From Eukaryota sp. GEM-RC1 (taxonomy: Eukaryota): 64,000 nt of DNA. Of the stretch, positions 333-57,895 are shown piece after piece. The notes below the pieces were generated by a model. The model ran no database searches. It was not told the origin of the DNA and saw only the letters and a program-made list of their open reading frames with translations. Within the stretch, counting starts at the first letter, position 1. The number at the start of each line of letters is the position of its first letter. The stretch spans positions 1,674,001 through 1,738,000 of the forward strand of contig JAUFOQ010000003.1 in the NCBI GenBank assembly GCA_040285855.1. The letters run 5' to 3'. Position numbers and translations under genes: made by a program.

Positions 333-3300
333 ATGCTCTCGCCTCTTCACAGCCTTCAACAGTCTTTATTGGTGTTGCTCAGTTCTAATCTTCTTCGAAA
401 ACTCTTTAAGTCCCATCTTTCAATTGATTATGATGATCCACGCTGCTCTCTTCGTTGTCTTTTAAGACACTTTCCCTCATGCTTTGAGAAAGTTGGATAT
501 GTGAGCAAAAGATTCTTTGAATCTACGTTCCTTGCAGCTCATCTCTTCTTTGAATCAAACACATTCCCTGTTGTATCAAGAGATATCCCTCTTCTGTCTT
601 CCATTGCTGCCCTCTTTGCAGCAAACATACGATCTATATTCTTAATTGATGGCAGGAAGTTCAAAGTAGAAGACCTTTCCTATTCTTTTTCGTCCATATC
701 TGGATTAAGCCTAAGACTGCATCACGATTGTACCATTCAGTTCGACTTTATGATCCACTCATGTCCTCTTCATTTACTTCATCTTAAGAAAGTTGACGTC
801 TTGGTTTATCCCATGGCTTCTCTTTCTTTCTTTAGTAAAGCCCTCAGTCTTAATCACACAATTCGAGAATTAAATGTTTATTTCTACTACTTCTCATTTG
901 CTGATTCCACTGCTTTTGAAGAAGTTTTCTCCTCAAACACCACATTGACCAACGTCACTATATCCTATAGCCCTTTGTTCCCCAGTGATCGTCTTGTTGA
1001 TGACGAGTTTCGACTTCTTTGCATTGCCCTTGAAAAAAGTACAGTGATTGAACTGGTAGACTTTTCTGGTTTCTCTGTGGCTGATTCAAATAATTTAATT
1101 TCTCTACTAAAGAGTCGTAGTATTAGAAGGTTTAAGTGTCCTATAGCTCCTTTTGTTCATTCTACCGTGTTTACTGCTCTTAATGCGTCGTTTATTAGGG
1201 AATTGTCTTTCAGGAATACAAATTTTAGTGTTGAAGATCTTTGTGATTATTTAAAGTTTAATCTCTATTTGAAAAAGCTGGAGATATCGGAATGTGCTGT
1301 ATCATTTCAATCATTTTTCAAATTTCTCGAATCTAATTCTTCTTTATCAGAATTAATACTCAATAAGTGTAAGAAGTCGCTCAATGAATCTCATTCATTT
1401 GTTCAAATGTTGCAATATAACCAGGGTTTACTTGTTTTAAATCTTGATGAGTCACTCTTTAAGTCTATTAATTTCCAAAAGTTATACGTGGTTTTTCAAA
1501 GAATTCTACTTTAAAGTCTGTCACTTTCTCAGCACTAGATTTTAGATCTTTACTTGTATTGTTTGAAGGATTAGTTGAATTCAGGTTTAAAACTAGTATC
1601 GATGTTTCCCCCAATTCTATTGACATTTCTACTGGATGTATTGTTTATGAAAATAAGATCAAAAACTCTGATCTGGTTTCACTTTTTTAATTCTTTGAAA
1701 TCAATGACTCCAATAACACGTGTTGAAAGTCGAGGGTCAGATTCTCTAAGTCTTGAAGGAATATTGGCCTTATTTGAAATTCTTTCTATCAACAGGTCAG
1801 TGATTGTTCTGGATATTTCTCCTCATTTAATTGATTTTGCTTCTGGTACTATTAAGTTTAGAAGTAATGTTTGTGCTAACGATTTGCACTGTTTGTTAAA
1901 TGCTTTAAAATCAAATGTTCCTATCAAACGTGTTGATTGTCTTGGATTGAAAAGTCCAAATCTTCTCGAAGTTGTGTATATATTTAAAATTCGCTTAATT
2001 GAAGATTTCCTGTTGGATTCGACGAGTTCTTCATACTCTGTTGATGTTGAAACTGGCGCATTAAGCTTTTCTCCCAGTGATTTTACTAGAATAACTCTTT
2101 CAGAAGTTTTGTCGTTACAATCATTGTGTGATCATTCTCACGTCAAAAGTCTTACTCTTCACAACTGTTTTGTTGCTGACGAAGCCTACACTCTTTTGTG
2201 TGATTTGATCAGGGAAAGTGATTCGTTGACTTCTATTGACTTCAGTCACTGTGGGTTAACTGATGATTGTGTTTTGAAGTTAATTGCTGCAGTTCAATCG
2301 AATCATTCAATAAGAAACGTTAATCTGAATAATAACTCTTTTGGTATCAAAAGTCTTTCCACTGTTTTTGAATTGACCACTACTCAGCAAATCACTTCAA
2401 ATTTTGAAATTTCTCCTCACTCAATTGACATTTCTAGTGGTACTATTATCTATGAAAGTAAAGTTGACCACACAGATCTGATTTCTCTTTTAAATTCCTT
2501 GAAGTGTAACTCTTCTATAACACGTGTTCAAAGTTTAGGAGTAGATTCTCTAAATCTTGAAGGACTCCTGACTCTATTTGAAATTCTTTCTATTAATAGC
2601 CGTGTGATTGATCTTGATATTTCTCCTCATTTAATTGATATTTCAAAAGAAAGCTTCTGTTTTTCACCGTCACGGTTTTTATCTATTTCTACTGAACTGA
2701 TTTCATTACGTTTTCTTCTTACAAAAGTCCAAATATCAAAGATCTTACACTTAAACGATGTTGTTTTACTTCTGAAGCAATCCCTATTTTGTGTGATTTG
2801 ATTAGCGTATGTGATTCGTTGACTTCTATTGACTTCAGTCACTGTGGATTAACTGATGATTGTGTTTTGAAGTTATTTACTGCAGTTCAATCTAATCATT
2901 CAATAAGAAAACTTAATCTAAATAGTAATTGTCTTGGTTTGGGGAGCCTTCTAATGATTTTTGAATTTGTCGTGATTCAAAAATTTCCTTCAAATGTTCA
3001 AATTTCTCCTCACTTTTTGATATTTCTACTTCTTCTATTTACTATGAATCCAAAGTTAAACAATCTGACTTGCGTTCACTTTTAAAAGCTTTAAAATCCA
3101 AGTTTTCTTTCAAGAATGTTTACTGTACGACACTTAAATCTCCTTGTTTACCATCAATTTTAACTTTGTTTGAAATTCTCACCATTAACAATTCGGTCCT
3201 AGTGATTGATATTTCGCCCCATTTTATTGATGTTAGGGCTGGAATCCTTAGGTTTTCTCCTAGTTTTAATGACGTGATTACTCCTACAGACGTTTTATCG

Positions 3301-3477
3301 CTACTGTCTTTGTTAGAGACCAATAATTTCAAACAGATTACTTTCGAAAACAGTAGTATTTCTGATAGTGCTATCAGTGTTTTACGTGATTTAATCAAGG
3401 TCAATTCAAGCAAGACTTCGTTTGACTTCCGTAATTGTACACCTTCTGCTGACGTTCTTCTTGGAGCAGTTAGTTAA
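333..3477 (+). CDS. Large RI-like leucine-rich-repeat protein, split into 4 ORFs by frameshifts
   Basis: Repeated LxxLxLxxNxI motifs (e.g. SLTSIDFSHCGLTDD). Internal duplication 2195-2330 vs 2788-2925. Recurring DISPHxID modules. Confidence 0.75.
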
Positions 3478-3893: not shown

Positions 3894-4380
3894 GTCACTG
3901 AGCCCTTTTAATCGTCTAAAAAGGACCTTGAAACGTATACTAGAATCGATCAATAATTTGTGATTAGCGAATGTTGATGTGATCGTTTGAAGAGCAGCTT
4001 ATGTTTCTCTGGTAGATTCTCGAAAGGATTTGGACTTTTAGTGTTTTAAATTTATAAACAATTTAATTTTTGAGCAATAATGAATCGAAACCGTTTGCAG
4101 ATAAATTGTTTAGCTTGGTCCTCTGATAAAAATAAATTTAGAGTTTCTTCATTTTGAATATATTATTTTGTTTAACATCATTTGAGTATGTTTTTGGCCC
4201 AACATTCTGTGGTAAAGTCCAGATTGATTCTACTACAAAGTAGTATTATAACGATGAACATGTAATGAATCACCATTGCCTACTAAACAACCCATAAATT
4301 TTGTTCTCATTTTAAGTAGTATGAAGGTCTTAGATTAATACAGTTGTCAGATGCGCCTGTATATATTTGTTTACTATATC

Positions 4381-5108
4381 GTGCTCTTGTGGAGCTAATG
4401 GTGTTTTTCGTCATTTAATTAATTGTCGTTATTTTATTCATCTCCGTGCAGTAATTCATGATGGTGTACGTGATTCTTGTTATTCCATGTTTAAAGCACA
4501 TGGTTTTCACTCTAAAGTTGAACCAGTTTTGAATCATCTTTCAGAAAATGAATTTACTGATCAAAAACGAGGGGATCTACATACTCCGTGGCTTAAATCG
4601 AGTCAAGCATTAATGGATTTTACTACAGTAGATGTATGTAACAAATCTTGTGTTAGTAGGATATTAGATTCTTCTTTTAATCCATTAACAGCAGCTGAAA
4701 AGCTCAAACACACCAAGTATGACTCTCAAGTAGAAGAATTAAATAGAAACTCATATTCCAAATTTGTGTTTCAACCTTTTGCTGTTTCTCTTTTTGGATC
4801 TATTAGTCCTGCTGGTGATCAATTTTTCAAGGATTTCGAAGAATTGTGTAAAGAAAAGAAGCGTAAGTTTAGAATGGCTGAATGGAAAAACCGTATAGTG
4901 TTTTCCATATATCGGAATATGCCTTTCTATTTCTCTAGATTAATTGAGAAATTGTACAAGTTTGGTGTGAAGGTTCATGTAGATAAACGTAATCTTTTAC
5001 CGGGTGGTGATGAAGTCGTTTGGATTTAATCTTAGTATTATTTGTTTGTTTTTACAATTTCATAGTTTGTAGAAAGGTTACCTTATTGGGTGCCGAATAA
5101 ACATCTCT
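4381..5108 (+). mobile_element. 5'-truncated RLE-type (CRE/R2-like) non-LTR retrotransposon, family A
   Basis: CSC...HLINC zinc knuckle, IHDGVRD, RGDL...DFTTVD, AEKLKHTKY and FQPFAVSLFG RLE motifs. Near-identical to 11891-12380 and 32196-33127. Possible CTATATC TSD. Confidence 0.85.
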
Positions 5109-5169
5109 CTATATCTAGACTGTTTCTTTGTACTTCACACACAAGTTCACAATGGACTATAATTTATAA

Positions 5170-5430
5170 AGAAATGTGATATTATTTATGTAGAGAAAGT
5201 TGTCAAAAAAAGAATGAACAAGAAATTTTATTTTGAGTTTTGGTTGAATCGTGTTGTCTTTACAATATTTAAAACAATTCCTATTATGATTTCAAAAGCT
5301 CTATTAGGTCTCAGTATTGTTTGTGAAGAAAAAGCTGATGTGAGTTTTAATGACAATGGATGTTGCTTTAATGATATTGAGTTCTAGTTTTTGTGTTTAT
5401 CTTCCTGTTTTTGTTCCATAAAATATTTTT
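5170..5430 (+). mobile_element. 3' tail fragment of RLE non-LTR retrotransposon, family C
   Basis: Encodes FWLNRVVFTIFKTIP. Homologous to 19640-19925, 20540-20825, 30970-31440 and 56970-57320. Confidence 0.7.
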
Positions 5431-6289
5431 TAACTGTGACATTTTTTTTGCCATGTAATTTTTGAAAATGTATGTTTTGCTTCAGAGCACAAACATATTT
5501 TGGTGATTTTATGTAGAAATAGGAAACACACCAAATGTTTTTCAAATACGGTAACAAAGAATACAGAATGTAAATGCAGGGTTTCTAACTAACCGTATGA
5601 ATAGTAATGACCATTCTGGTTCTTTCTTCTTCTTTGGGTCGAATGTATGAATCTCCTATAACCTAATGCCAAATATCGACAGTCCTTTCGCCATCTCTGT
5701 ACGGAAGCAACTATTAGAGGATCAAAAAATTCTCGCAGATTTTCACGATGATGTGGAAAAACTTACAGCAAAGTTGAAGTTGCTACACATGCCACCTGAA
5801 CTCGATCCGATTGATAACCCAGATGCGGTGATTGCTTTTCTGAGAAAAGAAATCTTTGCACGGAGGTAGCTATCAGAACAAAAACAACAACCAAGGAAAC
5901 TGCCAGAGCCTGGAAGAAAATTTGGCAAAAAGGGCACAGCAAGGAAACGTAGCAATTATAAAGTTTCATAAAAATAAATTTTAAACCACAAAATTAGCAG
6001 TGTGTCGAAATTTGGAAAAACTGACAAAACTTCTGATGTTTCACATTGATGCAATCATTTCCATTTCAGATATTATGTCCTCAATTTCTTTTCGGAACAC
6101 AATTCCGATATCATGTTTGGCATCTCTTTGGTTTAAAACAGCGCGTTAAATGCACATGTTCAGATTTTCATCAGAGTAAGATGTTCGGACTGCTTCAACA
6201 TCCGTCAGAATATAAAGTATAAAAGGCTTTTGTAAATGTAAGTGTCTATACATGTCAGACAAAAACCCCTAGATTCGATTGACCGTTGA

Positions 6290-6395
6290 TTAGCCGTAGT
6301 TGTTTTCTGACAGGCCGGACAGTGCTTAACATGTTGTACCATGTCAGCTTTCATCTTAGGCCAAAAGTAGCCACCATTCAAGATTGCGTTGTCCT
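6290..6395 (-). pseudogene. Ty3/Gypsy-like integrase zinc-binding domain remnant
   Basis: Manual translation NAILNGGYFWPKMKADMVQHVKHCPACQKT matches the integrase H2C2 signature YxWPxMxxDVxxxVxxCxxCQ. Confidence 0.7.
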
Positions 6396-7239
6396 ATCAA
6401 AGAAAGGCTTGCTTAGCTTTTGAAAAGAACATCATCTTAAGACCAGTAGAGTTCTGGTGAAGTCTTATAATAAGAACATCAATACACCATGAATTATATC
6501 ATTGATGATATTCTAGTTTGTTTAATGTTCTTTGACAGTTGGCCTATGTACTCACCTGCTCCTGATTACACCGTTCGATTTGATGATGTCACTCATTGAT
6601 TCCATTGTTGACACTATGTTTCACTTTTACTTTGCTGAGTCAAGTTTTCAATTTGGATGGATTGTATGTAAATGTAACAAATCTCTGAAACAGAACCTAA
6701 TCTAGTAAGCAAAGAGACTCAGATCGATTTCTTACGTACCATTCAATCATGAGATATGATGACGTTCATCATCTCATATACATACACGTCATCAAAAAAG
6801 TGATGACGTCATTCAAGAAAACAGATTGATTTTCAGAAGAAAAAATGGACAATTCGAACAACTTGATGAAGAAAATTGCTTTCGTCATCATTGATGTCTG
6901 AAAATGAGAAATCAATTAATCACAAGAATCAAATGACTGTCGAAGATAATTGCAGGAGTTTTTAATAACAATTTTAAATTAATCAATGAAGCCGACAGTC
7001 ATCCTATAAGTTTGAGACCAACTTAACATTGAACACTTTCTTGTTATCGAAAAGAAGTTCAACAGAGACATTCTCTGACAGGAGGAATAATAATAATCAT
7101 AATAGTCTCGACGAGCAGAAGTGCAGAGATTGCTGACAATCCAAAGGAACTTTATCTGGCTGTTGGCTCAGCAAACTTTTATTTCCATTGTCAGGAAAGT
7201 AAAAGACATGGATCAGATAGATGCTTTCGAATCACCAAA

Positions 7240-8107
7240 AGGAGTAAAGCACTTTCCCACCAGTGAATTCACCGTTAGCAAACAGCCAAGTTGCTGTATG
7301 TCCTTAAACGAAGCAATCAATAATTCGAGTTTGGTGGCAAACTCAAAGGTTTGGTAACCCAGATGAAGTCGTTGTTGGGTATGGAGACTGGAACGACACT
7401 GCTTTTCGTCGAAGAAGAAGTAAAGCATCGACTGTGAAAGGTGCTTAGATTCGGAAATTATTGAGAAAATTTGGATGTAGAGTTTTCTTAGTTGATGAAT
7501 TTAGGACCAGCAAATGTTGCTCTGCTTGTGTTTCCAGAAACGACGAAGGTATCTGTTCCAATCCTGAAAGGATAAAAGTCACTGATCCTCATTGGAAGAA
7601 GAAGTTACAGAAGGAAGAGAAAGCATTAAAAAGGAAATTATGGAACACAATCAATTAGACAATATTGTGGAGCGTAACTTTGATGAAGAATGGACATACC
7701 AGTTGCCAATCCTGAAAGAAAGATTGAAGAACAACAAAGTCTCACCATGGGGCTTAGTTGAATGTGCTAAATGTCATGTCCTCTGGAATAGAGACTTCAA
7801 CTCAGCTATCAATATTTATAATATTGTACACGGAACCATTCAAGGTCAAGGTAGACCTGCTGTCCTCGAGAGACCAAAATCTCAAACAACACCTGTTGTG
7901 GATGGCGGGAATACAGATCAGATTCCTAAGAAAAAGACTGTGAGTAAGGGTAAGCATAAGGCAAAGCGTCCTCTAACAACTGTCAGAGGTCCTAACAAGT
8001 GTGGTATATGTTTTCGGCCTGGGCATAACAAAACAACTTGTCCAAATAGGCCTAAGAAAGATGTACCCAAGGACTCACACGTAAACCAGAAAGATCAGGA
8101 ATCTTGA
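7240..8107 (+). pseudogene. Fanzor (eukaryotic TnpB-like RNA-guided endonuclease), C-terminal half, disrupted
   Basis: RFGNPDEVVVGYGDW...KGA*IRKLLRKFGCRVFLVDEFRTSKCCSAC (RuvC-II plus first CxxC). WGLVECAKCHVLWNRDFNSAINI...GQGRPAVL (second CxxC plus RuvC-III). TAG at 7446-7448 and a frameshift near 7630. No RuvC-I motif found upstream; the start coordinate is approximate. Confidence 0.85.
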
Positions 8108-8200
8108 ATCTATGAAGTTAGCTCGTCTTAAAAGACTTTGCGAATAAGGACATTCATTTGTTCAAACTGTGTCTTATCTCATGAAAATGAGTGAAGGGTG
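8108..8200 (+). ncRNA. Candidate Fanzor omegaRNA scaffold 3' region / element right end
   Basis: Directly downstream of the Fanzor stop. Serial hairpins GTCTT-AA-AAGAC, ATAAGGACA...TGTCTTAT and CTCAT-GAAA-ATGAG. Boundaries are inferred. Confidence 0.4.
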
Positions 8201-8280
8201 ATACCTTTATCAAAATCAAATGTTTAGGAAAATCTCTCACACTTCATTGCGTTGTGTTCTCTACTCTCCAGTTTCCACCT

Positions 8281-8916
8281 ATGCACTTCCAAAATGTTCA
8301 TCAAGAAAGTCGTCTCTTAGAATCTCGAATCAGAGAAAAACTGAAAGAACTCTCATCCCTATTACAAAACCTTTCTCCTTCTGATAGGAGTGTAGATGAT
8401 AGCCAGACCCTCTTCAATAGCTTAAGTGCCGAGATACAACACAGTCTGGAAGAACTACACTCTAGAACAACAATTCTTCAATCACTATCTTCAACCAACG
8501 TTGCACAATACCAAATGGCAACAAGAATATCTGACAACTATGAGCTACTACAACGAGAATTCACAGCTGTCCGAAGTAACATTCTACGACAACGTCAAAA
8601 ACTTCAGTTATTCTCTGGTATGTCTCAAGACGACCTTCTTCACATCGACGATAACACCAGAACAAGAGCTTCAATAGCCAACTCACATTCCATTGCTGAT
8701 GAACTTATGGAACAAGTGGATGTGGCTCGCTCTAGTCTGCTTGAACAGGGATCAACGTTGACAGGAGCTAGTGGGAAGTTGGCTGTTCTCGTGTCGAAGT
8801 TTCCCTCCTTGGATAGTATAATGAGAATGACTAGGATTAGAAGGGTGAGGAATACTATAGTAATGGCGTTTATTCTTGCATTGCTGTTTTTTCTGGTGTA
8901 TATTGTCAAAAAATAA
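8281..8916 (+). CDS. GOSR1: Golgi Qb-SNARE, GOS1/GOS28-like
   Basis: N-terminal helical bundle (RLLESRIREKL), SNARE motif, KFPSLDSIMRMTRIRRVRNTIV and a C-terminal TM anchor. Confidence 0.75.
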   Translation: MHFQNVHQESRLLESRIREKLKELSSLLQNLSPSDRSVDDSQTLFNSLSAEIQHSLEELHSRTTILQSLSSTNVAQYQMATRISDNYELLQREFTAVRSNILRQRQKLQLFSGMSQDDLLHIDDNTRTRASIANSHSIADELMEQVDVARSSLLEQGSTLTGASGKLAVLVSKFPSLDSIMRMTRIRRVRNTIVMAFILALLFFLVYIVKK

Positions 8917-10460: not shown

Positions 10461-10653
10461 CGTCGCATTGCAATTAAACAAATGTGTTGATGAAAAAGGT
10501 TACGAATCGGTTACTTACGACAGTTACCTGTACCCTTTTATATACACTATACAGCCTACGATTGTTCTGCAGTGCCAATAATGCTATCTATAGATTCAAT
10601 AATCGTCATTGGTAATCCAATTCAATTGCATTTTCTATCACACACTTAAAATA

Positions 10654-11343
10654 ATGGACTTCAACTCTGTCGTTATTAGCGATGCTTTTCTATGCCTAAC
10701 CATTGCTATAATTGTGTTCAAACTGTTCAAGAAGTTTTACAAAATCACCAAAGACACAGAACTTCGATCGTACTTGTGGATCTCTGTTCTCTTCTTCATC
10801 TTCTCTGCCTTAGGAGCTTCTGCTGGATCAGTCTACCACGCTTTTGAAGAAGATGTCTCCGATAAAGTCAGGTTCCTACTATGGTGTCCTGTCAAGTACT
10901 TCCTCGCTCTAACCACGTACTTCACTGCCAGGATCGTTATAGATGCTCTCTTTCAAGGCAAAACTAGACACGTTCTTAGTCAACTTGCTCTCATTAAAAC
11001 CGCCTTCTACATTGGATTGGTTACCACTGTTTCTTCTTTCCTCACGACTGCTGTTGACTTTGGTTTTACTACCCTATTTGCCATCATCGTGTGTCTAACC
11101 TTCGCCATCAAATACTCCTTGGTATACGCTTGCTGGTTCACCTTTGGGTGGGTGATTGGTCTTCTTGGAGTTATACTACAGGTGCTCCATGTTACTGTTG
11201 ACCCAACTTATTTCAATAACAATGATTTGTTCCATTTGTGTGCAGCGATCTCATCTGTTTTTGTGTATGTAGGAATAAGTGCGTTCTTTCAAATTCGTGA
11301 TAAGATGGATTTCTTAATTATTAACGAGAATGACTCTGTTTAA
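10654..11343 (+). CDS. Multi-pass (~7 TM) membrane protein, DUF6962-like
   Basis: Seven hydrophobic segments. Motifs SD (TM1), GSVYHAF and YFNNNDLFHL. Confidence 0.55.
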   Translation: MDFNSVVISDAFLCLTIAIIVFKLFKKFYKITKDTELRSYLWISVLFFIFSALGASAGSVYHAFEEDVSDKVRFLLWCPVKYFLALTTYFTARIVIDALFQGKTRHVLSQLALIKTAFYIGLVTTVSSFLTTAVDFGFTTLFAIIVCLTFAIKYSLVYACWFTFGWVIGLLGVILQVLHVTVDPTYFNNNDLFHLCAAISSVFVYVGISAFFQIRDKMDFLIINENDSV

Positions 11344-11593: not shown

Positions 11594-12870
11594 CAGTGGT
11601 TGGAAAAAATATTTCTATTTAAATATTGAAATATTATTGCATAAAAATATTTATTTCTTTCCATCACATATTGAAATATCTATTTCTCAACATGACTGAT
11701 TGCAATATTTATTGTTCCTCATGATATTTATTGCAATATTTTTCTTGTTTCTATCAAATTGAAAAAAGTGCGAAACCATGTTCTCTACAATTACAGAAAA
11801 TACATTTTCTTGTATCTGGTGCTGCTTCTTACGGTCACTGAAGGTTTTTGTTTCTTCTCCTTGGTTATAGTAATGTTTCCATTATTAATCTTTATTCGGC
11901 ACCCAATAAGGTAACCTTCCTACCAAACTATGAAACTGTAAAAACAAACATATAATACAAAGATTAAATCCAAACGACTTCATCACCACCCGGTAAATGA
12001 TTACGTTTATCAACATTAACCTTCACACCAAACTTGTACAATTTCTCAATTAATCTAGATAAATAGAAGGGCATATTCCGATATATGGAAAACATTATAC
12101 GGTTTTTCCATTCAGCCATACTACACTTACGCTTCTTTTCTTTACACAATTCTTCGAAATCCTTGAAAAATTGATCACCAGCAGAACTAGTAGATCCAAA
12201 AGAGAAACAGCAAAAGGTTGAAACACAAATTTGGAATATGAGTTTCTGTTTAATTCTTCTACTTGAGAGTCATACTTGGAGTGTTTGAGCTTTTCAGCAG
12301 CTGTTGGCGGATTAAAAGAAGAATCTAATATCCTACTAACACAAGATTTGTTACAAACATCTACTGTAGTAAAATCCAATATTTTATAGTAATGTGAACA
12401 ATTTCTGAACTTTTTTCTGTTCCCTTTCGCATGACTTGAAACCACACCACGTGGCAGTGTTCTACTTCAAGCCCATGGATCCGCAGCCTGAATCAGTTCC
12501 AGCTGGCAAGGTTGCATGGCAATGTAAACACTGCACTTACAGCAACCCTTTCATCCTGTTCGTGAAGAAGCATTCCATCGACACCAACTTCCGCCCCCGT
12601 TGTTTCGGTTTTTAATACGATGTGATTCCATAAAATATATTATGATAAGTACAAAAGTATAGGTAACGTACATGTATTTACTAAATAAAGACTCTTTAGT
12701 CATACAATTCAAAGAAGAGTTGTGTCACAGAAATATTTATGGAATATTGCAATAATTGCAATATTTATTTATTAGTCAACTGTATTGCAATATTTATTGT
12801 TTGAACTGAACCTATTGAAATATTTATTGTTAGCCATGATATTTATTTAAATATTTTTTTCCAACCCCTG
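11594..12870. mobile_element. Non-autonomous hAT-type element carrying a nested LINE fragment
   Basis: TIR CAG(T/G)GGTTGGAAAAAA. Perfect TSD CCTTCGAT (11586-11593, 12871-12878). Subterminal ATTGCAATATT repeats. Confidence 0.9.
11891..12380 (-). mobile_element. RLE non-LTR retrotransposon 3' fragment, family A, nested in the hAT element
   Basis: Close reverse-complement match to 4615-5101. Confidence 0.88.
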
Positions 12871-16535: not shown

Positions 16536-17522
16536 CAGGGATGCCGAAAAATATATTGTATTGCAATACATATTGTGTCGGTTTCACAAGTACAATATAT
16601 TTATTGCAAGACTTCAGTTATTGCAATATATTGCAATATATTGTACAATATATTGCAATATTTCGACTCGTGTTCAGAGAACAAAGTTGTTTGCTGTGCT
16701 CTTATACTCTGTGAAACATTAGAGTACAAGTATAACAGAACTTGTGAAGAAAAACAAAAGTGTCACTTCATGTCAGAACCCACTCCAAAAACATTCGCTG
16801 GTCACTTTTGTACTTAGATCGTTAAAGAGGAATGCTACACGTTGGTCTTCTGCTGTGGCCATGATACAAAAGACAGCTACAGTACATTGAATTAAGCGTC
16901 TATGAACATTTTGGTTCTGATGTGGGAGAATGTGTTCTGTCCTTTAATCAAAATGCAACAGTGAAGGAACTATCAAAAGCTTACGAGGACTTTGAAAGCA
17001 TTACAAAGTTTTTACAGAATGAAGACACTTCCATCTTGTCTGCCAAAGCTGCTTTTACGGTTCTTCATGAAGGATATCCTTTCATGAACAACTATACCAA
17101 TTATTCACCAAACTGACTGTAGGATGTCTCAGAACAAAACTTACTTCAGAATCTTTGGAAAAACAACTCTTCCTGCTTTACAATAGATCATATTGGGATG
17201 AGAGCACCATCGAATCCATCATTTGCCATTGTCCATTTGTCCAAATTGTGGAACAATGATTCGTAGTTTTCTTTAACTGTTTTGGCTGAATAAATATTTT
17301 ACAAACACTCCCAATTTTCTTACATGAACAAATATTGGAAAAACTGAACTGGCAGCACATGATCACTGTGAAGAATTGAAAATATTGCAATATATTGCAA
17401 TATATTTATTGCGACAGGTGACAATATCAGTATATTTATTGCAATATTCGCAAACCACAAAATATTTATTGCAATGTTTAAAACGTACAATATATATTGT
17501 AATATATTTTTCGGCATCCCTG
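16536..17522 (+). mobile_element. Internally deleted hAT transposon
   Basis: TIR CAGGGATGCCGAAAAATATATT. TSD GTTATCAA/GTAATCAA. Transposase remnants RNATRWSSAVAMI and FESITKFLQNED. ATATTGCAATAT subterminal arrays. Confidence 0.9.
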
Positions 17523-18050: not shown

Positions 18051-19470
18051 TCAAAAGAAAAAATCAAACAATGTAGAATTTTCATCCAAAGCATCTTCCA
18101 GCACTGTGGCACCTTCATCCCCAACAGAATTTAGCTCAAAAGAAATATTGGTCAAAGTACAATTCACTTTTAAAGCTTCTGCCAATGCTCGAGCACCTTC
18201 ATCTCCAACAGAGTTTTCACTTAGATCAAAACGCGTAACTGTAGCGTTAACTTTCAATGAATCTGATAATGCTATGGCACCTTCATTTTCAATAGAATTT
18301 CCCCTCAGATCAACACTTGCAACTGTGGGATTAACAGTTAACATCTCTGCAAATGCTCTTGCACCATCATCTCCAATAGAGTTTTGACTCAGATCAATTG
18401 TTGTAACAGTATAATTGACTTTCAACGCTTCTGCCAACGCTCTGGCACCTTCAGCTCCGATAGAGTTGCTTCCCAATTCAACACTTGTAATTGTTTCATT
18501 AACTTTCAACGCATCTGCCAATTGTCGTGTACCTTCATCTCCAATTGAGTTTATCCGCAGATCAATATGTGTAATTGTATCATTGACTTTCAACGCATCT
18601 GCCAAATATCTAGCACCTTCAGCTCCAATGGAATTGTTCCAAAGATCAACACGTGTAACTGTATCATTAACTTTAAACACCTCTGCCAATGCCCTGGTAC
18701 CGTCAGCTCCAATAAAGTTAATCATAAGAAGAATTTCCGTTAACGTAACATTTACTTTCAATGCTTCTGCCAAAGCTCGAGCACCTTCAGCTCCAATATG
18801 GTTGTCCCTCAAATAAATAATGGTAACTTTCTTATTGACTTTCAACGCTTCTGCTAAAGCTCGAGCACCTTCAGCTCCAATATGGATGCCCAGCAGAATA
18901 ACATTTGTAACTGTAGTATTTACCTTCAACAGTTCGATCAATTTTAAAATTCTATTTTAAAAAGAAACAGAAGCACCAGCTCGAACATAAAGCTGCCTAA
19001 GTTTGGGAAAGAAAACAGAAGAATTGTTCAGAAATTCCAAGTCATTGTAATCCTCAAATTCTATTTCCAATCCAGTAATTAAGTGAGAATAACCAAGGTA
19101 TTCTTCAAGAATAAATGTATTAAGTTGATAAAGATCGTCAGGGACAAAATGAAACGTGTTTCTTTGGAAAAACACCTGTACTGCTATTAAAGAAGTCTCC
19201 AAGAAATGGTGACTTACAAAAGCGACTTTCTTAAGAAAAACAGGCAATTCTTCAAATTGTGGAAATCATGGTGGGGTATATGATAATTAATTTCCAAGGA
19301 AGGCTTTAAAACACGATTCAGCATCTGGAGATGTATCAAAACCAACACGGACTGCTGAAGACGGATACATCTGGAAGGAAGATGAGTGGATAGTGATGAG
19401 GGACAGAGTTGGACTGTGGAGAGGAGAGCATCTGTTCATCAGTGGAAGATGGGGAGACAGCAGAAGAAAC
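18051..19470 (-). CDS. RI-like LRR protein with ~10 28-aa repeats; N-terminus frameshifted, start uncertain
   Basis: Tandem repeats of the form IDLxxNSIGAEGARALAEALKVNxTVTx. Confidence 0.85.
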
Positions 19471-19639
19471 AATGTCAGTAGGGTGAGACATGTAAACAGG
19501 GAAGTTTGCTTCTTAAGTGTCTGTAAAATATGTGATTGCTATGGATGTTTGCCAAAAAAAGTGCATTTAGAGATTAACATGAAGGGAAATTAGAACAATA
19601 AAAGAGAAACAAATACGATGTTCCCTTGCCTGCTCTCCA

Positions 19640-19950
19640 ACGTACTAGACATGTTGAGTACAAATTATGTCATCTTGCAATTTGAATCTATGATCGATTT
19701 GGTAAAGATGTTCTTGGTTTTCTCTCTGATTGTGAGAAAGCTGTCAAAAAAAGCATGGTCATAAAAATTCATTTTAAGTTTTGGTTGAATCGTGTTGTCT
19801 TTACAATATTTGAAACCATTCCGATTATGATTTCGAAACCTCTATTAGCTCTTATTTTCTATGTAGAAAAATCTGATTTGAGTTTTGATGGCAATGAATG
19901 TTGCTGTAATGTTATTGAGTTCTAGTTTTGGTACTTGTCTTACTGTTTTT
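19640..19950 (+). mobile_element. RLE non-LTR 3' fragment, family C; tail interrupted by a MITE and resuming at ~20385
   Basis: HVEYKLCHLAI and FWLNRVVFTIFETIP. Colinear with 5200-5425. Confidence 0.7.
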
Positions 19951-20539: not shown

Positions 20540-20825
20540 AAAAAACCATTGATGGCTCTAAAACATGTAAAATATGTTGAATACGAATTTCTGCATTTTG
20601 CTGTTGCTATTTACGGTCGCTAAGGAAAAAGTACATTGAATTTTACAAACTATGTCGGCAAAATCGTAAAACTTAGCATGAACAAACGCTTTGATCATAT
20701 GTTATGGTTGAATCGTATCACTTTTACTGTTTTTGAAACAATTCCACTGATCATCTCGAAAGCATTATTAGCTGTGAGTTCCTGTTATAAGGACGGGCGT
20801 TGTTTTAATGAAATCAAATCTTAGT
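20540..20825 (+). mobile_element. RLE non-LTR 3' fragment (family C-related)
   Basis: KPLMALKHVKYVEYE and FDHMLWLNRITFTVF. Closely similar to 57020-57310. Confidence 0.7.
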
Positions 20826-30925: not shown

Positions 30926-30969
30926 TTTTAAATTTCTACAATGTTTTATAAAACAAAAATTGTAAACAA

Positions 30970-31440
30970 ACACTGGAACTCAATACCATTAAAGCAATAT
31001 TCATTACCAATGAATCTCACAGAAGCTATGTCTTCATAGAAAACACTAAGAACTGAAAAAGCTTTCGAGATGATAACAGGTATTGTTATAAAGATTGAAG
31101 AGGTTATACGATTCAACCAAAACTTAAAATAAAATATTATTTAATTCTTTTTTTCTTAACAACTTTCTCAAAATCATTGAGAAAACAAAGAGCATCTTTA
31201 TCAAACTGACCATAAATTGAAATTGCAAAAGAACATAATTTGTACTCAACGTGCTTTGTCTGTTTGAAAGCAGTCAAGAAAGTATCGTATTTTTTCTCTC
31301 TTAAATTGTTTTGAAAAAATCAAGGGGTGACACTTCATTTTTGACATATAGTAATCACATCAAAAACCGTCAGTTCTTCACTGACTGATGGAACGATGAC
31401 ATCACTTCTCTTTTTACCAAAAGTCTTATCGAAATCATTT
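30970..31440 (-). mobile_element. Degenerate RLE non-LTR 3' region, family C
   Basis: DKTFGKKRSDVIVPSV, as in the 51812 ORF, and FWLNRITSSIF. Confidence 0.75.
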
Positions 31441-32195
31441 TGTTAGGGATGTTAACTGGTTCACTTCAAGTGTGTGTGAACCGGTTCTGAATCGATTGAA
31501 TCGATCCTGTTTTTTGGATGTTTGAACTAATTCAAAAAATTACAAATATCCTCGAAAATGATCTTTTACTAATGAATTAGAGATGTAAATCGGTCAAGAA
31601 TCTATACACATCTATGTAAAGATGTATGTATATGTATATCGTCTTGACATCAATGTATTTTTCTACATCGACAATACTTTAATTCGCTTCCATATCTTCT
31701 CATAATATAAATGCTTCAATGCAACCCAATAGTGTTACCTCGGAACATTTACTTTCACTTGCTTACTTATTGCCAATAACAAGAGGGTCAAATTGAGTGA
31801 AAAGTCTCTCCAATCTTTTTTATGTTTGGACTCATGGCTTAAGACAAATCTAGATTAGGAGAGAACTTCATTTTCAAGCTAATAACTGAATGTTATCGTC
31901 CAAATTAATGACAAATTTGGGTAGTCTTTAATTGAGTATATTTATTAAACTGAAGGTGAAGCTGAAAATGGGAGCATCCATCAGTGTAACAACGGCCCGA
32001 AGAGAAACAGAAGAGGAGAGCTACCTTTACATGTGAATTCTTCTAAATAGTATGTTGTAAAAGAGTCCATATTTTGAAGTAGCAAATGTACCAGTAAGAA
32101 GTTTGCTTTTCAACTTTTAGTCTCCAATACTTCCAACATTGCTAGATATGTCTAAATCGTATTACTAAAAGATGGATTTGTACACACCGTAATCA

Positions 32196-33127
32196 ATGTT
32201 TATTCGGCACCCAATAAGGTCACCTTCCTACAAACTATGAAATTGTAAAAACAAACAAATAATACTAAGATTAAATCCAAACGACTTCATCACCACCCGG
32301 TAAAAGATTACGTTTATCAACATTAACCTTCACACCAAACTTGTACAACTTCTCAATTAATCTAGAGAAATAGAAAGGCATATTCCGATATATGGAAAAC
32401 ACTATACGGTTTTTCCATTCAGCCATTCTAAACTTACGCTTCTTTTCTTTACACAATTCTTCGAAATCCTTGAAAAATTGATCACCAGCAGGACTAATAG
32501 ATCCAAAAAGAGAAACAGCAAAAGGTTGAAACACAAATTTGGAATATGAGTTTCTATTTAATTCTTCTACTTGAGAGTCATACTTGGAGTGTTTGAGCTT
32601 TTCAGCTGCTGTTAATGGATTAAAAGAAGAATCTAATATCCTACTAACACAAGATTTGTTACATACATCTACTGTAGTAAAATCCATTAATGATTGACTC
32701 GATTTAAGCCACGGAGTATGTAGATCCCCTCTTTTTGATCAGTAAATTCATTTTCTGAAAGATGATTCAAAACTGGTTCAACTTTAGAGTGAAAACCATG
32801 TGCTTTAAACATGGAATAACAAAAATCACGTACACCATCATGAATTACTGCACGTAGATGAATAAAATAACGACAATTAATTAAATGACGAAAAACACCA
32901 TTAGCTCCACAAGAGCAAGTTGAATAGTTTAATAAATTTGCAGGCCAAATAGCCAAACGAAGACGCATATTGATCATCCAAGCTTCATCAGATAGATGTA
33001 ATCCATACACCTTAGGAATTTGAGAAATAAATCCAGAAGGTCCACTATTACAAAGATCGATTAAAAAAGCAGCGAACTCGGGACTATTAGTTTTAGCCAA
33101 GCTAATACGATTATTAAAGTCCAAGAG
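32196..33127 (-). mobile_element. RLE non-LTR retrotransposon, longest family A copy (5'-truncated)
   Basis: MRLRLAIWP, zinc knuckle and RLE motifs. Near-identical to 4381-5104. Confidence 0.88.
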
Positions 33128-33442: not shown

Positions 33443-36042
33443 GAATTTTCTGATATTACTTCATATGTGGGCAGGAAGAGTCAGTGACATTGAAGTTAAA
33501 TGGACGGTGTAGTTGTTGGTGAAGAAATACTTGTATAATAAAGAGTACTGTATGTAAATTATTATCGTTTATTTAACACGCCTATGCTACAAGTGTCCAC
33601 ATTAAATCAGCTCCTCTAGTGTAAGAACCTGCTCCAGTATTACCATATACATCAGCAAAATTAGAAGGGAAAGCCTCAGCATGAACCTCAGCACCATTTA
33701 CATCAATTTGAATAGATGTAAACTGATCATCAGGAGTACAAGAAAAGGCATTTTCAGAAATGGTTTCAACAGAGCTACTGATAACAACAGATTCAAGAAG
33801 ATTGTTTAAAAATGCAGAAGCATCAATCAAAGTGACTCCTTGCGGAATAGTCACGGATTTCAGCAGGTTTGAAGAGAAAGTTGAAGCTGAAACAGTAACG
33901 AGTGAGGTTCCTTCAAAAGTTAAAGTGGTCAACGTATTTGAAGCAAATGCAAAATCTCCAATGGTAGTGACAGATGCAGGAATAGAGAGTGTGGGTATTT
34001 GATTACTTTCAAAAGCAGCAGTTCCGATATGTTCAAGACCAACTCCGAATGACAGAATAGTCAAACCGTTGTTACGGAAGGCAGAATCTCCAATAGCAAC
34101 AACAGAAGAAGGAAAAGTAAGCGCGGATATGTGATTACTTTCAAATGCAGAATTTCCAATAGAGGTGATGTGATTAACAAAATTAAGAGTACCGGTTGGA
34201 TTTCCCTTGAAAGCTGAGTCTCCAATAGTGATTACAGTGTAAGGAATATTGAGTGTGGTAAACATGTTATTTTCAAAGACAGAAGGTCCAATGTGATTAA
34301 AAGCAGTTCCGAATAAAATGGCGGTCAACTTATTGTTACGGAATGCAGCGTATCCCATAGTTTCGACAGAGTTGGGAATGTTGAGCGTGTGTAAGAGATT
34401 GTTTTCAAAAGCAGTACTTCCAACATGTCTAACAGAAGTTCCCATTGTAAGCGATGCCACCTTATTATTACGGAATGCAGAATCTCCAATAGTTTCAACA
34501 GTGTGAGGGATACTTTGAGTGTCAATTATATTGTCTTCAAAAGCAGAATTTCCAATGGATGTAGTTCCTTCATACATAGTCACACTCGATATAATATTCT
34601 TTTGAAAGACAAGTCTCCAATAGAAATAATGTATGCAGGAATATCGATTGCTCCCATTCGATTAATTTCAAAAGTAGAAGTTGCAATATGATCAAGACCA
34701 GTTCCGAATGTAATACCAGCAATCAGATTGTTACGGAAAGCAGCATCTCCCATACTTGTGACACTATGAGGAATGTTGACTGCTGCTATTTTGTTGTTTT
34801 CAAAAGCAGCACTTCCAATATCTTGAAGAGGAGTACCCAGTGTAATAGTAATTAACTGATTGTTACGGAAGGCGAAATCTCCAACGGTTGTTACACCGAC
34901 AGGTGACATGTGCTATTTTGTTATTTTCAAAAGCAGATTCTCCTAAGGAGATGGCAGTGTTAGGAAGAGTAAGTGTATCGAGAAGGTTGTTCTTGAAAGA
35001 TGAATCTCCAATGGTAATAACACTGTTGGGAATGACGAGCGCTGTCAAATTACTGGCTTGGAAAGCACCGTCTCCAATAGTAGTGACACCATCGAGAAGT
35101 GTGGGAAATGATGATAGAACGTTCTTCAAATTGTTACCTGTGGTTTCCAATAAAAAGGGACGATCGAGAGTAGTCAATTGATTGAAAGCGAAGGCATTCG
35201 TACCAATAGAAGTGACACCACTTCCGTATGAAACAGACTCCAAAAGATTATTAGCAAATGCCGACGGCGAGATAATCGTAACATCATTTGGAATGAATAC
35301 TGACTGTAGACTATTAGACTCGAAAGCAGATTGTCGGATCTCCAAGACAGTGTCAGGAATAACAACCGAAACTATACCTTTAGATTTGAAAGCATTTTCA
35401 TCAATGACAGTAATGTTGACATTATTGAGCATAGAAGGAATTTCTACATCAAGACCGAATGAAGCATCATAGCCAGTAATAGTTCCACTAGCAAAAGAAG
35501 ACGTAAAACCATGACCTTTCAAGGATATAGTATCTTCAAAAGAATCTTTAAGAGTAAATGTAAGTTGACGATCAAAGAAATTGGTATGCATAACCAATAT
35601 TTCAGATTCCACTGATGCTTCCATAGGAATAGTAACGACTCCTTTGTTATTACTTTTTGCTTCAAAATTTTGATACAAAGATTGTACAACTACATTTTGA
35701 ATAGGTGTTTGGTCTTTTCATTGACAAAAGTCAGTTTGAGAGAATGATCATTGTCCTTACCCATATACATCATGGAAAATACTATTGCAAGAAGTACAAC
35801 AGCAAGTAGGGCAAGCCCACCAATGACCATTCTAGTACGTCCCTTAGTGAAAAAGTTCATACCTTTTCTTAAAGAACTAACATTAGCTGCATAGTCAGGA
35901 AGAGGTTCCAATTGGACTGCACATTCAGGACCATCGTTATCAACAAATGGATATTTGGCAACTTCATAATTGCCGGCAGAAGTTGCGCTCAAAATAATAG
36001 GTTCATGAGTTCCCACACAGGCTACAGAAACAACATCTATTC

Positions 36043-36813: not shown

Positions 36814-37900
36814 AAAAAAAACGGATTTATGTGCGGAGAAAAACACATAATAAGTTAAGTACAAATAGATAAACACTATTAAAACAAATTATCAAACGAA
36901 CTACCTAATTCCGAAAAGTAGTTGCCTCCAAACAACTTGGACAAAATGGAATCAACATATCTATACATAGACCTAAAAATCGAAAAAGCAAATTTACTCT
37001 TCCAGTACGATCTGTTAAACTTCTTGCCAAGTTCTGAACACAAATTTTCAAATAAACTTAAAAACTCCTTGGTAGAAGAACCGAAATTTCCGTACAATGA
37101 AACTGCAAAAGGCTGAAAGACGATATTATTGTGTCTTCGTGAATTCAATGCAGCAACTTGATGTCCATACTTAGACACTTTGGCGTTCTCAGCGTCTTTC
37201 AGCGGATCATTTGAGGGATTCAAAATGTTGGCAATAGCTGAAGCTTTGCAAGGATCAACGGTCGTAAAATCAACAACAATTTCTTGGCATGACAACCAAG
37301 GGCCAATAAAATCACCACGTTTCTGAGTAGAATCAGGGTGATCTGAAAGATGAGAAAGTAATGGTTCGACTTTGCCATGGAAACCATTTGCCTTAAACAT
37401 TTCCAAACATGTATCTCGAAGACTGTTGTGCAAAATTGAACGACAATGTATGAACTTTGAACAATTGACCAAATGATGAAAGCTAGCCTTATGTTTGTTT
37501 TTACAGATACACGTGCTGTTCTGTATCAAACCAAATGGCCAAAAACCTAAACGAAGTCTCATGTTAACAAGCCATTCATGATCTTTTAGATTAAAAATAA
37601 ATCTCCCTGGCAATTGAGTAATGAAAGTAGATGCTGAATCACTACTCATGTCTTGTAAAAATGCACAGAAAGCGGGACTTTTAACTTTAGCCAAGCTAAT
37701 GCAGTTAGTATAGTCCAAGCTCTCATGGAAAGATACAAATTTCTTCTGAAATTTTCTAACACCAAGAGGAAGGGAAAAAAGCGTACGTTGAGGTGTTTCC
37801 GTCACAGATGCAGGGAACAAGGATTCCCAAACATCAGGGTTCATACCATCTACAGCCCAATGTTGTAAACTAGTATGAAATGTCAAGAGATTGAACAAAC
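36814..37900 (-). mobile_element. 5'-truncated RLE non-LTR retrotransposon, family B, with open reading frame
   Basis: MRLRLG, CIC..HHLVNC, LHNSLRD, RGDF..DFTTVD, AENAKVSKY and FQPFAVSLYG. Confidence 0.88.
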
Positions 37901-38301
37901 TAATGCTGAAGGTACTTGCTGGAGTGGAGCTTACGGGAGCTACAGCAAGGATTAGAGGAGCGGAGGGACTGCCGAGTTCCATTTTGGCAGAACGTTCAAC
38001 ATCTTCGAGCTTGGATGCTATTTCTGCCGGAAGATTGTTTCCATCATCAAAAGTTACATTCTGACATTAGACCGAGTGTGTATACAACATACAGTAGACA
38101 CGGAAAACCCAAAAGGTTAGTGTCAGAGGACAATAAGGATTGCATCAAAGTTGAAAGGAAACAAGAGAGAGAAATGATGAGACTGATCCCAAGTTGCCGT
38201 AGTTTTGATGAAGATTCTATTAATAGATCAAAAGAATAGGGAACGCCTCTAGTTTTGCTCTTAATCTTAGTTCTGGAGTCGCGACTGAGGTCCAAGTTTA
38301 G

Positions 38302-42065: not shown

Positions 42066-43940
42066 CTATTTTCCATCCAAAGCTAATTGAACATCATCAA
42101 CTGCAGAATTTGAAATTTGACGAAGAGAAAACTTCTCATTTAAAATCTTCAGTGCGTCAGGAGAAAGAAAAGCTGGGAGCCTTGGTCCTAATCTAATGTT
42201 CTGAACTCCCAAATGTAGTAAAGTAAGCAAAATAGCAACAGCTTTCTGCTCAAACCAAGAGACAAAATACGAAATAGGAAGGTCATTGAGCCCTACTCCA
42301 AGTTGATTGGCAAGATGAGCAACAAGAGTAATGGCAGAGAACGTATCATTACACTGACCGGCAATCAGCAATCTAGGAAAATCAGTTCCAGGAAGAGTGC
42401 CAAAGTCCTGGTGACAAACGTACCTGTAGATGCCACACCTAAGGTTAGGTTAGATTAGTATGTCATACGCGCTGCCAATGACAATACAGTCAGGAAGATT
42501 CTTATTAACGTATTCAGCAACCTCTGAGAAGTAATTTCGACCTGGAAAAGAGCCGTCACAGCCACCAACAAAGAAGACTCGTCTTAGTTTACCAGCTTTA
42601 ACCAACTCGATAATGGCATCAGATAAAGCGGTTGTAGTTCTCCAATTAGCTCCAATAATTTGATCAGGAAGGAAACCCTCGAACAGTGGAGGTCCATCTG
42701 AGGCAAACCCAGGCATGTCCTGAGCTTTCTTAATAACTGGAGTCCAATCTTTCTCAGGATAGTTATCAGGCAAGTAATCAATATGGGGGACACCTTCCAC
42801 TCCAACCAAGTTACAGGTAAACATTCGATCCTTGTAAGTCTCTCTGGGAGGCATTATACAATTAGTGTTCAAAACAATGGAACCTGGGAACAAGCTGAAC
42901 TCTTTCCGTTGGTTTTGCCAAGCACTACCAAAGTTTCCAACAAGGTGAGAGAACTTTCTTAATTCGGGATAGGCGTTTGAAATCAACATCTCTCCGTGAG
43001 TGTAAACGTTTACACCAGATCCTTCTGTAGCTTTAAGAATAGAGTGAAGATCATGAAGGTCGTGGCCAGACATCAATAAGCACTTTCCATTACGAACACC
43101 AAAGTTTACACGGGTTAGGGTAGGAGTTCCGTAAGCAGACGTATTAGCCGGATCGAGACGTTCCATTGTATCAAGGTTCATTCGGCCAACCTCCATAGCA
43201 AGAGCAAGCAGATCTGCATTGGGTTTTAGCATTTCGGTTAAGACTGTTACGATAGCTTTTCCATCGTTGGAGATATCACCTCCCAGAATATCAACATGGG
43301 AAGCATAAGCAGAAAGACCTTTGAGACCATAAATGGAGATTTCCTGAAGACCCGTTACAGTTGCTCCTTGAGTTTTGAGACGTTGAAAAATTCCAAACTG
43401 ACGACCTTGTTGTTCTAATTCTCCAGTTGTTTTAGCTGGGACCCATGACTTCAAACTGAGCTTGTTTGCAATGCCAAACTCTGCAGGATATTCGAAGGGT
43501 TCAAGATTTAACTGTTTCAACATTTGCTTGGCTTCTTCTGAACACACGTAAATGTCATTGATATGTTTAGCAACACGAGAGTGATCGAAATTGACATTAG
43601 TGAGGGTTAGAAAGAAAGCATTAACAAGCGCAAGGGTCCAAGATTTTGGTATTGCTCCTTGAAGATCCAGGATTGGTCGGGCGTGGATAGCCCTAAGATT
43701 AGGTTCAGTAACTAGTAAACATACAAGTGAAACGCCCCAGCATGAATGTTGTCGAACAAAGCACTTTGAACATCGTCTTTAGAACAAACACCTCTCTTGG
43801 TAAAGCAACCCTTTTCAGCGTTTTTCCCAGACCCTAGTGTTAGTTCACAATCATTATAACGTACCAGATTGTTCGCATTGGTAGCAGAACATGGGGGGTT
43901 CAACATTGATGGTTTCCAAGTCTTCCTGAGATAGAACCAT
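42066..43940 (-). CDS. hcp: Hybrid-cluster protein (hydroxylamine/NO reductase, prismane); introns 43834-43864, 43693-43724, 42439-42468
   Basis: Spliced protein has MFCYQCEQ..GC..GVCSK, TLTNVNFD, YGLKG, SGHDL, YTHGEM, AWQNQ, TNC, GGCDG, CG, GQCND and SWFEQKA. Confidence 0.95.
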
Positions 43941-51108: not shown

Positions 51109-51879
51109 TGTTAATTGAAAAGATGAATTGTACAACTCAACAGTTAAATACTAAAATTTTGGATATATACAGTCTCGATTAAAATGACATACCCAAAATG
51201 GCTTTGGACACTTTTTGTGTCGTACATTATTTGTAAATCGTCTTAGTATAACGCTTTTAAGTTCAAAGTTTACACTCGAAATCTTAGTCTCCAAAGACTA
51301 CCCTTCTTTGCAACAGGATCAATCTGAGTGTGGTGTAGCTCGTCTCATCAAGGTTTTGAATCTGACTGACTAGAGTGCACAACTTCACATGGTTTGGTAT
51401 TTCAGCAAATAGTTTGCAATTTTTTATAATGAACATTATTAAGCGTTTCTTAATTTTTGTCACTTAACTGATCGAAGTTAAGTGACAAAAAGTCTCACAT
51501 TTTAGTCATTTAGGATACACCGTTGACGTACTGTAATGGAACGTTTAGAAAATTCAGTAGCAAATTGTATGCTCTGCAAGGTGTTAAGGAATACATGACC
51601 TAATTGTACCAAGCAATGGTTTATTTGATCAGAAAGATCTGCTGTCGTGTGTTGCTCTCATGTATTTCTGTCATTTTCATCAATTAAAGGGATTTTAGGG
51701 CTGATAAAAAACACAAAAAATACAAAAAAACACAATGCCCTGGATGTAGTGCGTACCGACGTGAGCGCACTATAGCCAGGGTCGACTCGAACTTTTCCAG
51801 AAAAAAATACAATGCAAATTACAGAAAAAAGACTGTATTTTGTATTTTACAACTATGACTCAGGCTACAGTAATCAACT

Positions 51880-52750: not shown

Positions 52751-52899
52751 ACTGAATTATATTTAAATCAGATACTTTCAACTAGAAATATATAACCGTC
52801 AAAGAATTTTGTTTGTCCACGTATATTCGAGACAATGTTGGAACAACTTCTAGTAGAGGGCTAAATCCAATCGTAATTGTTGTTCAGATCTCAAACAAA

Positions 52900-56969: not shown

Positions 56970-57320
56970 ATGGTTATTCTGAAATTTCCCCTTTAGATAA
57001 TTCTGAACAAGCCAAACAGGATAAGTACAAGAAACCATTGCTGGCTTTAAAACATGTCAAACATGTTGAATACGAATAATGCTCTTTTGCTGTTTCCAAT
57101 TTACGGACGTTTAGGGAACAGTGCATTGAATTTTTCAAACGATTTCGGAAAAATCGTAAAAAATAGGATGAGCAAACATTTTGATCATATGTTATGGTTG
57201 AATCGGAACGTTTTTACTGTTTTTAAAACAATTTAATCATCTCCATGGCTTTATTAGCAGTGAGTTCCTTTTTTAGGACAAAGCTGTTTGTTTTAATGAT
57301 ATCAAATTTTAGTTGTTTGA
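56970..57320 (+). mobile_element. RLE non-LTR 3' fragment (family C-related)
   Basis: EISPLDNSEQAKQDKYKKPL and FDHMLWLNRNVF. Confidence 0.7.
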
Positions 57321-57845: not shown

Positions 57846-57895
57846 CAAGTGTTGTAGCGCATTTCGTTGATCAACGAAATGCGCTACAACACTTG
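57846..57895. repeat. Perfect 50-bp palindrome
   Basis: CAAGTGTTGTAGCGCATTTCGTTGA is immediately followed by its exact reverse complement. Confidence 0.95.

Follow-up and report, generated by a model that had tools for sequence, protein, structure and literature searches.

A 64,000-nucleotide stretch of DNA from Eukaryota sp. GEM-RC1 (hereafter, the window) carries the remains of a Fanzor-type nuclease gene, and the locus raises the questions of which element it derives from, what its complete relatives look like, and how this copy was laid down. A sequence-only reading had proposed a Fanzor locus at 7240..8220, with RuvC-II, zinc-ribbon and RuvC-III motifs in the expected order across two open reading frames and a TAG stop. 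All of these motifs were located, in that order, on the + strand (Table 1). The Fanzor homology holds, but its start does not: it begins at about 7347–7350, and no fetched Fanzor protein matches window positions 5000–7300. The proposed motif list, although correct in what it named, overlooked a C-terminal CCHC knuckle.

That 7350–8107 (+) is a dead Fanzor1 copy is virtually certain. It represents the last ~40% of a Fanzor1 gene, from residue about 392 of 644, and aligns in two frames, well beyond chance, to GEM-RC1 gene models of 644 aa (tblastn E 1e-135, 88–92% identity, window 7347–8104). The first piece is 88–89% identical to aa 392–489 of models P0012, P0019 and P0020, and the second is 90–92% identical to aa 485–644 of the 644-aa relatives. 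Searched with an X at the stop, the first piece matches three GEM-RC1 models (73–93% identity) and five metagenomic proteins of 528–663 aa (8 of 62 candidates); each piece alone matches Pfam PF07282 weakly (E 5e-4 and 1.4e-3), under the curated cut-off.

Table 1. Features of the Fanzor1 copy and its surroundings (positions in the window).
Position	Strand	Feature	Remark
4382-5104 (+), 11884-12381 (-), 32192-33126 (-)		Non-LTR-like 3' ends	95-98.6% identical, without poly(A)
7338..7352	+	Candidate target-site duplication, 5' copy	Straddles truncation point
7350..7658	+	Fanzor1 piece 1: RuvC core strand, rearranged RuvC-II glutamate, first zinc-ribbon CxxC	
7350-7391	+	RuvC core strand motif FGNPDEVVVGYGDW	Three-frame translation
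7446-7448	+	In-frame TAG stop	Three-frame translation
7482-7529	+	Motif VFLVDEFRTSKCCSAC	Catalytic E codon at 7497
7625..8107	+	Fanzor1 piece 2: charged helical zinc-ribbon insert, second CxxC, RuvC-III, GRP, basic tail, stop	
about 7626-7635	+	Frame change within A-run	Reading frame gone at about 7630
7763-7774	+	CAKC, second CxxC	Three-frame translation
7784-7816	+	WNRDFNSAINI, RuvC-III	Catalytic D codon at 7793
7850-7858	+	GRP	Three-frame translation
8000..8041	+	C-terminal CCHC zinc knuckle CGICFRPGHNKTTC	Weak match to Pfam zf-CCHC_2 (relatives, E 0.014)
8105-8107	+	Stop codon of copy	
8147..8209	+	Candidate omegaRNA scaffold/right end: three adjacent hairpins (7, 5, 6 bp)	Second hairpin with GAAA loop
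8211..8225	+	Candidate target-site duplication, 3' copy	Directly behind last hairpin
8281..8916	+	Host V-SNARE gene, outside element	PF12352 E 1e-5; ATG 70 nt past inferred right end
36879-38066 (-), 51776-52795 (+)		More distant non-LTR-like ORFs	

Aligned to its relatives, the copy is without RuvC-I, WED and REC; the RuvC-I DP motif (DPG as published) is missing from this truncated sequence. With no RuvC-I, a TAG and a frameshift, it cannot encode a nuclease, as the sequence-only reading had supposed, and the window's own copy is a relic only. It has 13 private residues in 251, against 0–4 in 260 for nine other models. Some of the breaks may nevertheless be artefacts, since the frameshift in the A-run also ends six other models from two subfamilies, a pattern that fits the homopolymer errors of nanopore-based assemblies; the A-run frameshift may be such an error, an explanation that does not extend to the TAG or the truncation. 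Recoding of the TAG was considered and rejected: relatives have Ser at that position, and the window's long genes need no read-through. The upstream ORFs (7033–7266, 7106–7357 and 5651–5869) had no Pfam or NCBIfam match at E <= 0.001 and matched neither the fetched Fanzors nor the transposase of the giant-virus contig L004; 7106–7354 had no atlas match either. A Mariner-like motif seen by eye in ORF 5651–5869 was not borne out by these searches.

Profile and structure searches placed the best matches inside the TnpB/Fanzor/Cas12f group and refine the proposed Fanzor identity to Fanzor1. Among solved structures, the window piece matches best PpFz1 (PDB 9cf0; E 0.001) and SpuFz1 of Spizellomyces punctatus (PDB 8gkh, 9cey; E 0.002), and the 644-aa relative P0020 matches SpuFz1 at 8.5e-15 and PpFz1 at 3.7e-9. 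An AlphaFold model of P0020 (pLDDT 75, built with 97 sequences) recovers seven Fanzor1 chains at E <= 2e-8, followed by Cas12b, Cas12f and Fanzor2 at E >= 0.004 (Fanzor2 only at 0.018); its viral fold matches are mostly giant-virus proteins. The NCBIfam TnpB match reaches only E 0.086. By sequence and fold, the window gene is nearer Fanzor1 than Fanzor2, TnpB or Cas12f.

Individual motifs agree. The Fanzor fingerprint given in excerpts of PMC10711439, a rearranged RuvC-II glutamate about six residues ahead of the zinc finger, is present in the window copy as DEFRTSKCCSAC (E codon 7497), and the corresponding E442 is invariant in 97 of 97 sequences. The Fanzor1 signature [TS][TS]xx-C4 zinc finger-RD (PMC3627910, in part) is represented by CSAC...CAKC...WNRD, with spacings that exceed the published ranges. 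In relatives, RuvC-I reads DPN (D161 of P0012, P0019 and P0020), a form found also in SpuFz1 and 39 of the 87 other relatives; the DPN, the rearranged glutamate, the W-N-R-D of RuvC-III and the fold are all shared between the clade described below and SpuFz1/PpFz1. A eukaryotic host and multiple copies, as in Fanzor1, were likewise found, and no IS607-type serine recombinase, which would speak for grouping with IS607 TnpB and Fanzor2, was matched among the scanned upstream ORFs. By analogy with characterized members, RNA-guided, TAM-dependent DNA cleavage is predicted for intact members of the family.

The host is likely an anaerobic protist. NCBI taxonomy leaves the named relatives unclassified. 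GEM-RC and TZLM3-RCL are Skoliomonas, free-living anaerobic metamonads with short-read-corrected nanopore assemblies (10.1101/2023.05.03.539051, in part). Genes in the window include those for V-SNARE, eIF4E, S18, DHHC, Arf, ANAPC3-type TPR, prismane and BspA-repeat proteins. The prismane/hybrid-cluster gene (42450–43778, −; E 4e-74) is typical of anaerobes; other features are leucine-rich repeat genes of BspA and RI type (33582–35717 and 18051–18956, both −), a DUF6962 membrane protein in a eukaryote (10603–11343, +; E 2e-25), and perfect palindromes of 50 bp (57846–57895) and 34 bp (16628–16661). Because the nearest outside relatives are metagenomic, some of them on giant-virus contigs, we considered whether the locus is a contaminant or endogenous giant-virus DNA instead of a host element. 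This origin is largely refuted and must be rated extremely unlikely: eukaryotic host genes flank the fragment and are continuous with it, its GC of 0.40 equals that of the next gene, its relatives come from megabase-sized eukaryotic contigs, its clade is common to three species, and searches with the family's peptides confirmed none of 86 candidate stretches on metagenome contigs and none of 599 and 2 candidates on viral contigs. The locus is not the first Fanzor in a metamonad, since Carpediemonas KAG9392881.1 is already tabulated (PMC10711439, table S2); in that paper's table S5, the rows for Giardia (two of three), Streblomastix and Anaeramoeba look like unrelated proteins.

The expectation that the fragment belongs to a Fanzor family with possibly intact members is borne out as far as a multicopy family with complete D-E-D triads is concerned, but none of the fetched GEM-RC1 models spans the whole protein and every one is partial. 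Twenty-six models make up the 90% cluster closest to the window, and the 15 of them that are listed lie on seven contigs; a sister subfamily forms a cluster of 14, and further fragments group into clusters of 8, 5 and 3 (cluster sizes are not copy numbers, as fragments of one locus may count twice). Three 644-aa models (P0012, P0019 and P0020) are 95–96% identical and keep D161, E442, D541 and the four zinc cysteines, although their match to the profile begins at position 226 of 659, so that they too lack the front part. In GEM-RC1, models from different Fanzor subfamilies often carry near locus tags (004212/004214, 008483/008486, 012190/012192), which suggests clustering or insertion beside each other.

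In a phylogeny of the C-terminal region (107 sequences, 164 columns, midpoint-rooted, with no named Fanzor references included), all 16 skoliomonad sequences, from three species, form one clade with FastTree support of 0.99. TZLM1-RC we take to be S. litria. Compared with 87 full-length relatives that have no known skoliomonad origin, the clade is expanded in two places, corresponding to inserts of ~110 aa in RuvC and ~45 aa in the zinc ribbon: the RuvC-I to II interval is 278–282 aa (against a median of 169 and a maximum of 212 in the 47 relatives with both motifs), and the zinc-ribbon spacer is 69–87 aa (against a median of 39.5 and a maximum of 61, n = 46). One or two CCHC knuckles occur in 10 of 18 skoliomonad models checked, several of which are fragments, and in 0 of the 87. 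Giant-virus Fanzor1 proteins (e.g., of Mariner/IS630-linked loci such as L004) are the nearest outside relatives, at 30–42% identity and about 600–800 aa, and unlike the clade show no knuckle within that comparison set. PpFz1 likewise has a RuvC insertion of ~100 aa (PMC11423790, in part), but relative to SpuFz1 and PpFz1 the clade has a longer zinc-ribbon spacer and RuvC-I to II interval, a CCHC tail and an N-terminal exonuclease domain.

This last feature emerged from TZLM3-RCL, where model P0050 (1473 aa, in a cluster of 4; models of this sister species are 1473/1479 aa) is by far the longest of the best 150 representatives among 1.84 billion proteins, the other 149 all being <=854 aa. Excerpts of PMC11423790 put most Fz1 proteins at 600–700 aa. 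P0050 comprises, in order, a 2A-like DVEANPGP at residue 104, a PF03104 domain and a whole Fanzor1 (profile 11–647); DVEANPGP, which fits the 2A consensus, recurs in P0202 and is degenerate in P0204. The exonuclease assignment is based on PF03104 (E 5e-13), matches to Pol delta and an atlas value of 0.95, and the nearest kin are the proofreading domains of Pol delta and phage PolB. PolB-type DEDDy exonucleases are defined by the motifs Exo I (DxE), Exo II (NxxxFD) and Exo III (YxxxD). P0050 carries these as FDVET, GYNCDKFD and YCVND, its Exo II aligns to that of yeast Pol delta, and the DEDDy residues are all present in both RCL models P0050 (D281/E283, D409, Y546/D550) and P0202.

When the P0050 exonuclease region was searched among shorter proteins, the single match in 7211 candidates was GEM-RC1 P0207, a member of a cluster of five. 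In P0207, P0208 and P0211, PF03104 (E 3e-10) is followed by the start of the Fanzor1 profile (E 2e-5 to 2e-8), such that the exonuclease-like domain runs in frame into the Fanzor N terminus (first 50 profile positions) in three of the five models; two end earlier. These three overlap the start of Fanzor model P0048 at 77% identity over 22 aa, roughly the distance between the window's subfamily and the sister subfamily (72–73% identity). In all five models (P0207–P0211), the Exo II aspartate is replaced by T and Exo I and III are not recognisable, yet PF03104 is still matched. This loss of acidic residues from the GEM-RC1 form indicates that exonuclease catalysis is dispensable. AlphaFold gave no usable model of P0211 (6 sequences, pLDDT 30).

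We are highly confident that the exonuclease-Fanzor1 fusion, known from gene models, is real in the skoliomonad clade; on that footing, the clade is a Fanzor1 variant not known from earlier work, with an exonuclease fusion and a knuckle tail. No natural exonuclease-Fanzor or exonuclease-TnpB fusion is described in titles or abstracts among the matches listed, and no literature linking Fanzor with Skoliomonas was found. The word "exonuclease" is missing from the main text of PMC10711439, PMC10530073 and PMC10432273 and from the supplements of the first two (supplementary figures may mention it). Mobile-element accessories of similar activity exist, namely, the DEDD 3'-5' exonucleases of P and piggyBac transposons (PMC3627910, in part) and those of bdelloid LTR elements and Athena ORF3 (PMC5408684, in part), but these go with a DDE transposase or a retroelement, whereas the clade has a PolB-type domain fused to an RNA-guided nuclease. 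For the role of this domain, kinship with the proofreading domains of Pol delta and phage PolB makes trimming of 3' DNA ends at the Fanzor break the first guess, and we lean slightly toward it; that the domain has no role is doubtful, and guide RNA trimming is less probable again.

It could also be that the whole GEM-RC1 family is decaying, with no intact copy left, and that the exonuclease is a fragment of a B-family polymerase, picked up passively and without a role. The partial nature of all fetched GEM-RC1 models and the missing Exo I, II and III acidic residues would fit. We nevertheless hold this to be quite improbable, as models 95–96% identical with intact triads persist, the A-run frameshift recurs in the manner of homopolymer errors, the dead domain stays open for 247–428 aa in five copies, and two RCL models are complete.

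Whether the fusion reaches the window's own subfamily bears on a further explanation, in which the copy is an ordinary Fanzor1 remnant of a TIR element (Mariner-like or another DDE type) that lost its 5' part by later deletion, the fusion being confined to other subfamilies. No model ties the exonuclease-like domain directly to the window's subfamily: none of the listed Fanzor models adjoins the five exonuclease-like locus tags (11 of the 26 members being unlisted), and the exonuclease-like cluster has only five members against 26 for the window's cluster, which counts against the extension. Contig L004 carries an IS630/Mariner transposase fragment (2662–3324) upstream of its Fanzor1 (3974–5962), internally deleted models exist (P0044), and the 13 private residues imply an older copy with time for deletion. 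The fusion, however, occurs in each of the two species and is shared by the branch containing RCL and the P0048-like one, neither a TIR nor a transposase was found near the copy, and a direct repeat lies exactly at both inferred ends. On balance, a plain TIR-element remnant is unlikely, and the 77% overlap together with the shared clade suggests that the fusion probably holds for the window's subfamily too. The most likely reading is a 5'-truncated, broken copy of a multicopy Fanzor1 that is predicted to cut DNA under RNA guidance and whose full-length form would bear an N-terminal PolB-type exonuclease or exonuclease-like domain.

The repeat at the two ends is the best that the 5' junction shares with the 3' flank (13 of 15 positions identical). 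In two sets of control tiles, 2 of 362 and 9 of 424 attained its score with a mismatch penalty of −1, and 10 of 362 and 18 of 424 with −2 (p about 0.006–0.04), an imperfect repeat of modest significance, although the tiles give no credit for its position at both inferred ends. Bracketing the copy in this way, it hints at 3'-anchored copying. Neither a poly(A) nor a 3' likeness to the window's non-LTR copies was found at the copy. Of the 31 fetched models, 11 cover the start of the 644-aa model, 6 its middle and 15–18 its last 40%; this coverage is only mildly 3'-biased and shaped by the choice of queries, which counts against such copying. The hairpins at the right end are not significant (z −1.3 to −1.7 in 80-nt windows; +0.37 for the wider 8105–8240 fold), and their position makes them a candidate omegaRNA; the first has seven pairs, like stem-loop 1 of solved Fz1 omegaRNAs (PMC11423790, in part), but a 15-nt loop. 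A more structured stretch (7990–8079, z −3.2) lies in knuckle-coding DNA, where an overlapping omegaRNA could possibly start. If an omegaRNA is made, the 3' repeat copy would double as its guide.

If the copy's relatives behave as the family does (RNA-guided cutting with right-end RNA, according to excerpts of PMC10432273), RNA from the element's own right end would load onto an intact Fanzor1, flanking DNA would act as guide, and cuts at empty sites would keep or spread the element. The window copy may have been copied from the 3' end, stopping after about 0.86 kb and leaving a 12–15 bp duplication, most likely with a helper enzyme in trans, either the reverse transcriptase of a resident non-LTR element or one that copies from one end in the manner of Helitron2. 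Truncated non-LTR elements with 95–98.6% identical copies sit in the window, and Helitron-like copying fits equally. The former are presumably of the class with a restriction-like endonuclease; their three 3' ends have no Pfam match, and a 12-bp direct repeat flanks the second. Also in the window are an Integrase H2C2 zinc-binding relic (6208–6393, −; PF17921 E 9e-8), 1 kb upstream of the Fanzor copy on the opposite strand, and a dispersed, possibly MITE-like noncoding repeat, 75–85% identical (5193–5427, 19594–19950, 20651–20779, 30940–31310, 57150–57299).

The CCHC and 2A motifs are both parts of retroelement type. 5'-truncated, 3'-intact Fanzor1 copies have precedent in CRe-1, 2 and 3 (Helitron2, Chlamydomonas reinhardtii), often with 7–19 bp duplications and a 3' hairpin (PMC3627910, in part), and excerpts of PMC10288648 call the cause of such duplication-flanked copies unknown. 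In contrast to CRe-1, 2 and 3, no Helitron link emerged here, and in the one copy compared, the sequence preceding the 5' repeat is not rich in T. We tentatively raise the speculative picture that skoliomonads harbor recently expanding, giant (1,300–1,450 aa) exonuclease-Fanzor1 fusions, with 2A StopGo and CCHC, spreading as 3'-anchored non-autonomous retroposons with target-site duplications.

Exonucleases are fused to RNA-guided nucleases with the aim of altering editing outcomes, and on a Fanzor2 every such fusion lowered activity (PMC12923547). A fusion of exonuclease and Fanzor that arose in nature, and whose exonuclease is live in one species but dead in the sister species, shows how the pairing can work and comes with a built-in control. 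Because this young family is present in many copies in assemblies close to chromosome level, its ends, TAM and guide could be read from one genome alignment, and the same alignment could address how Fanzor1 elements lacking a transposase move, a question that has long been open.
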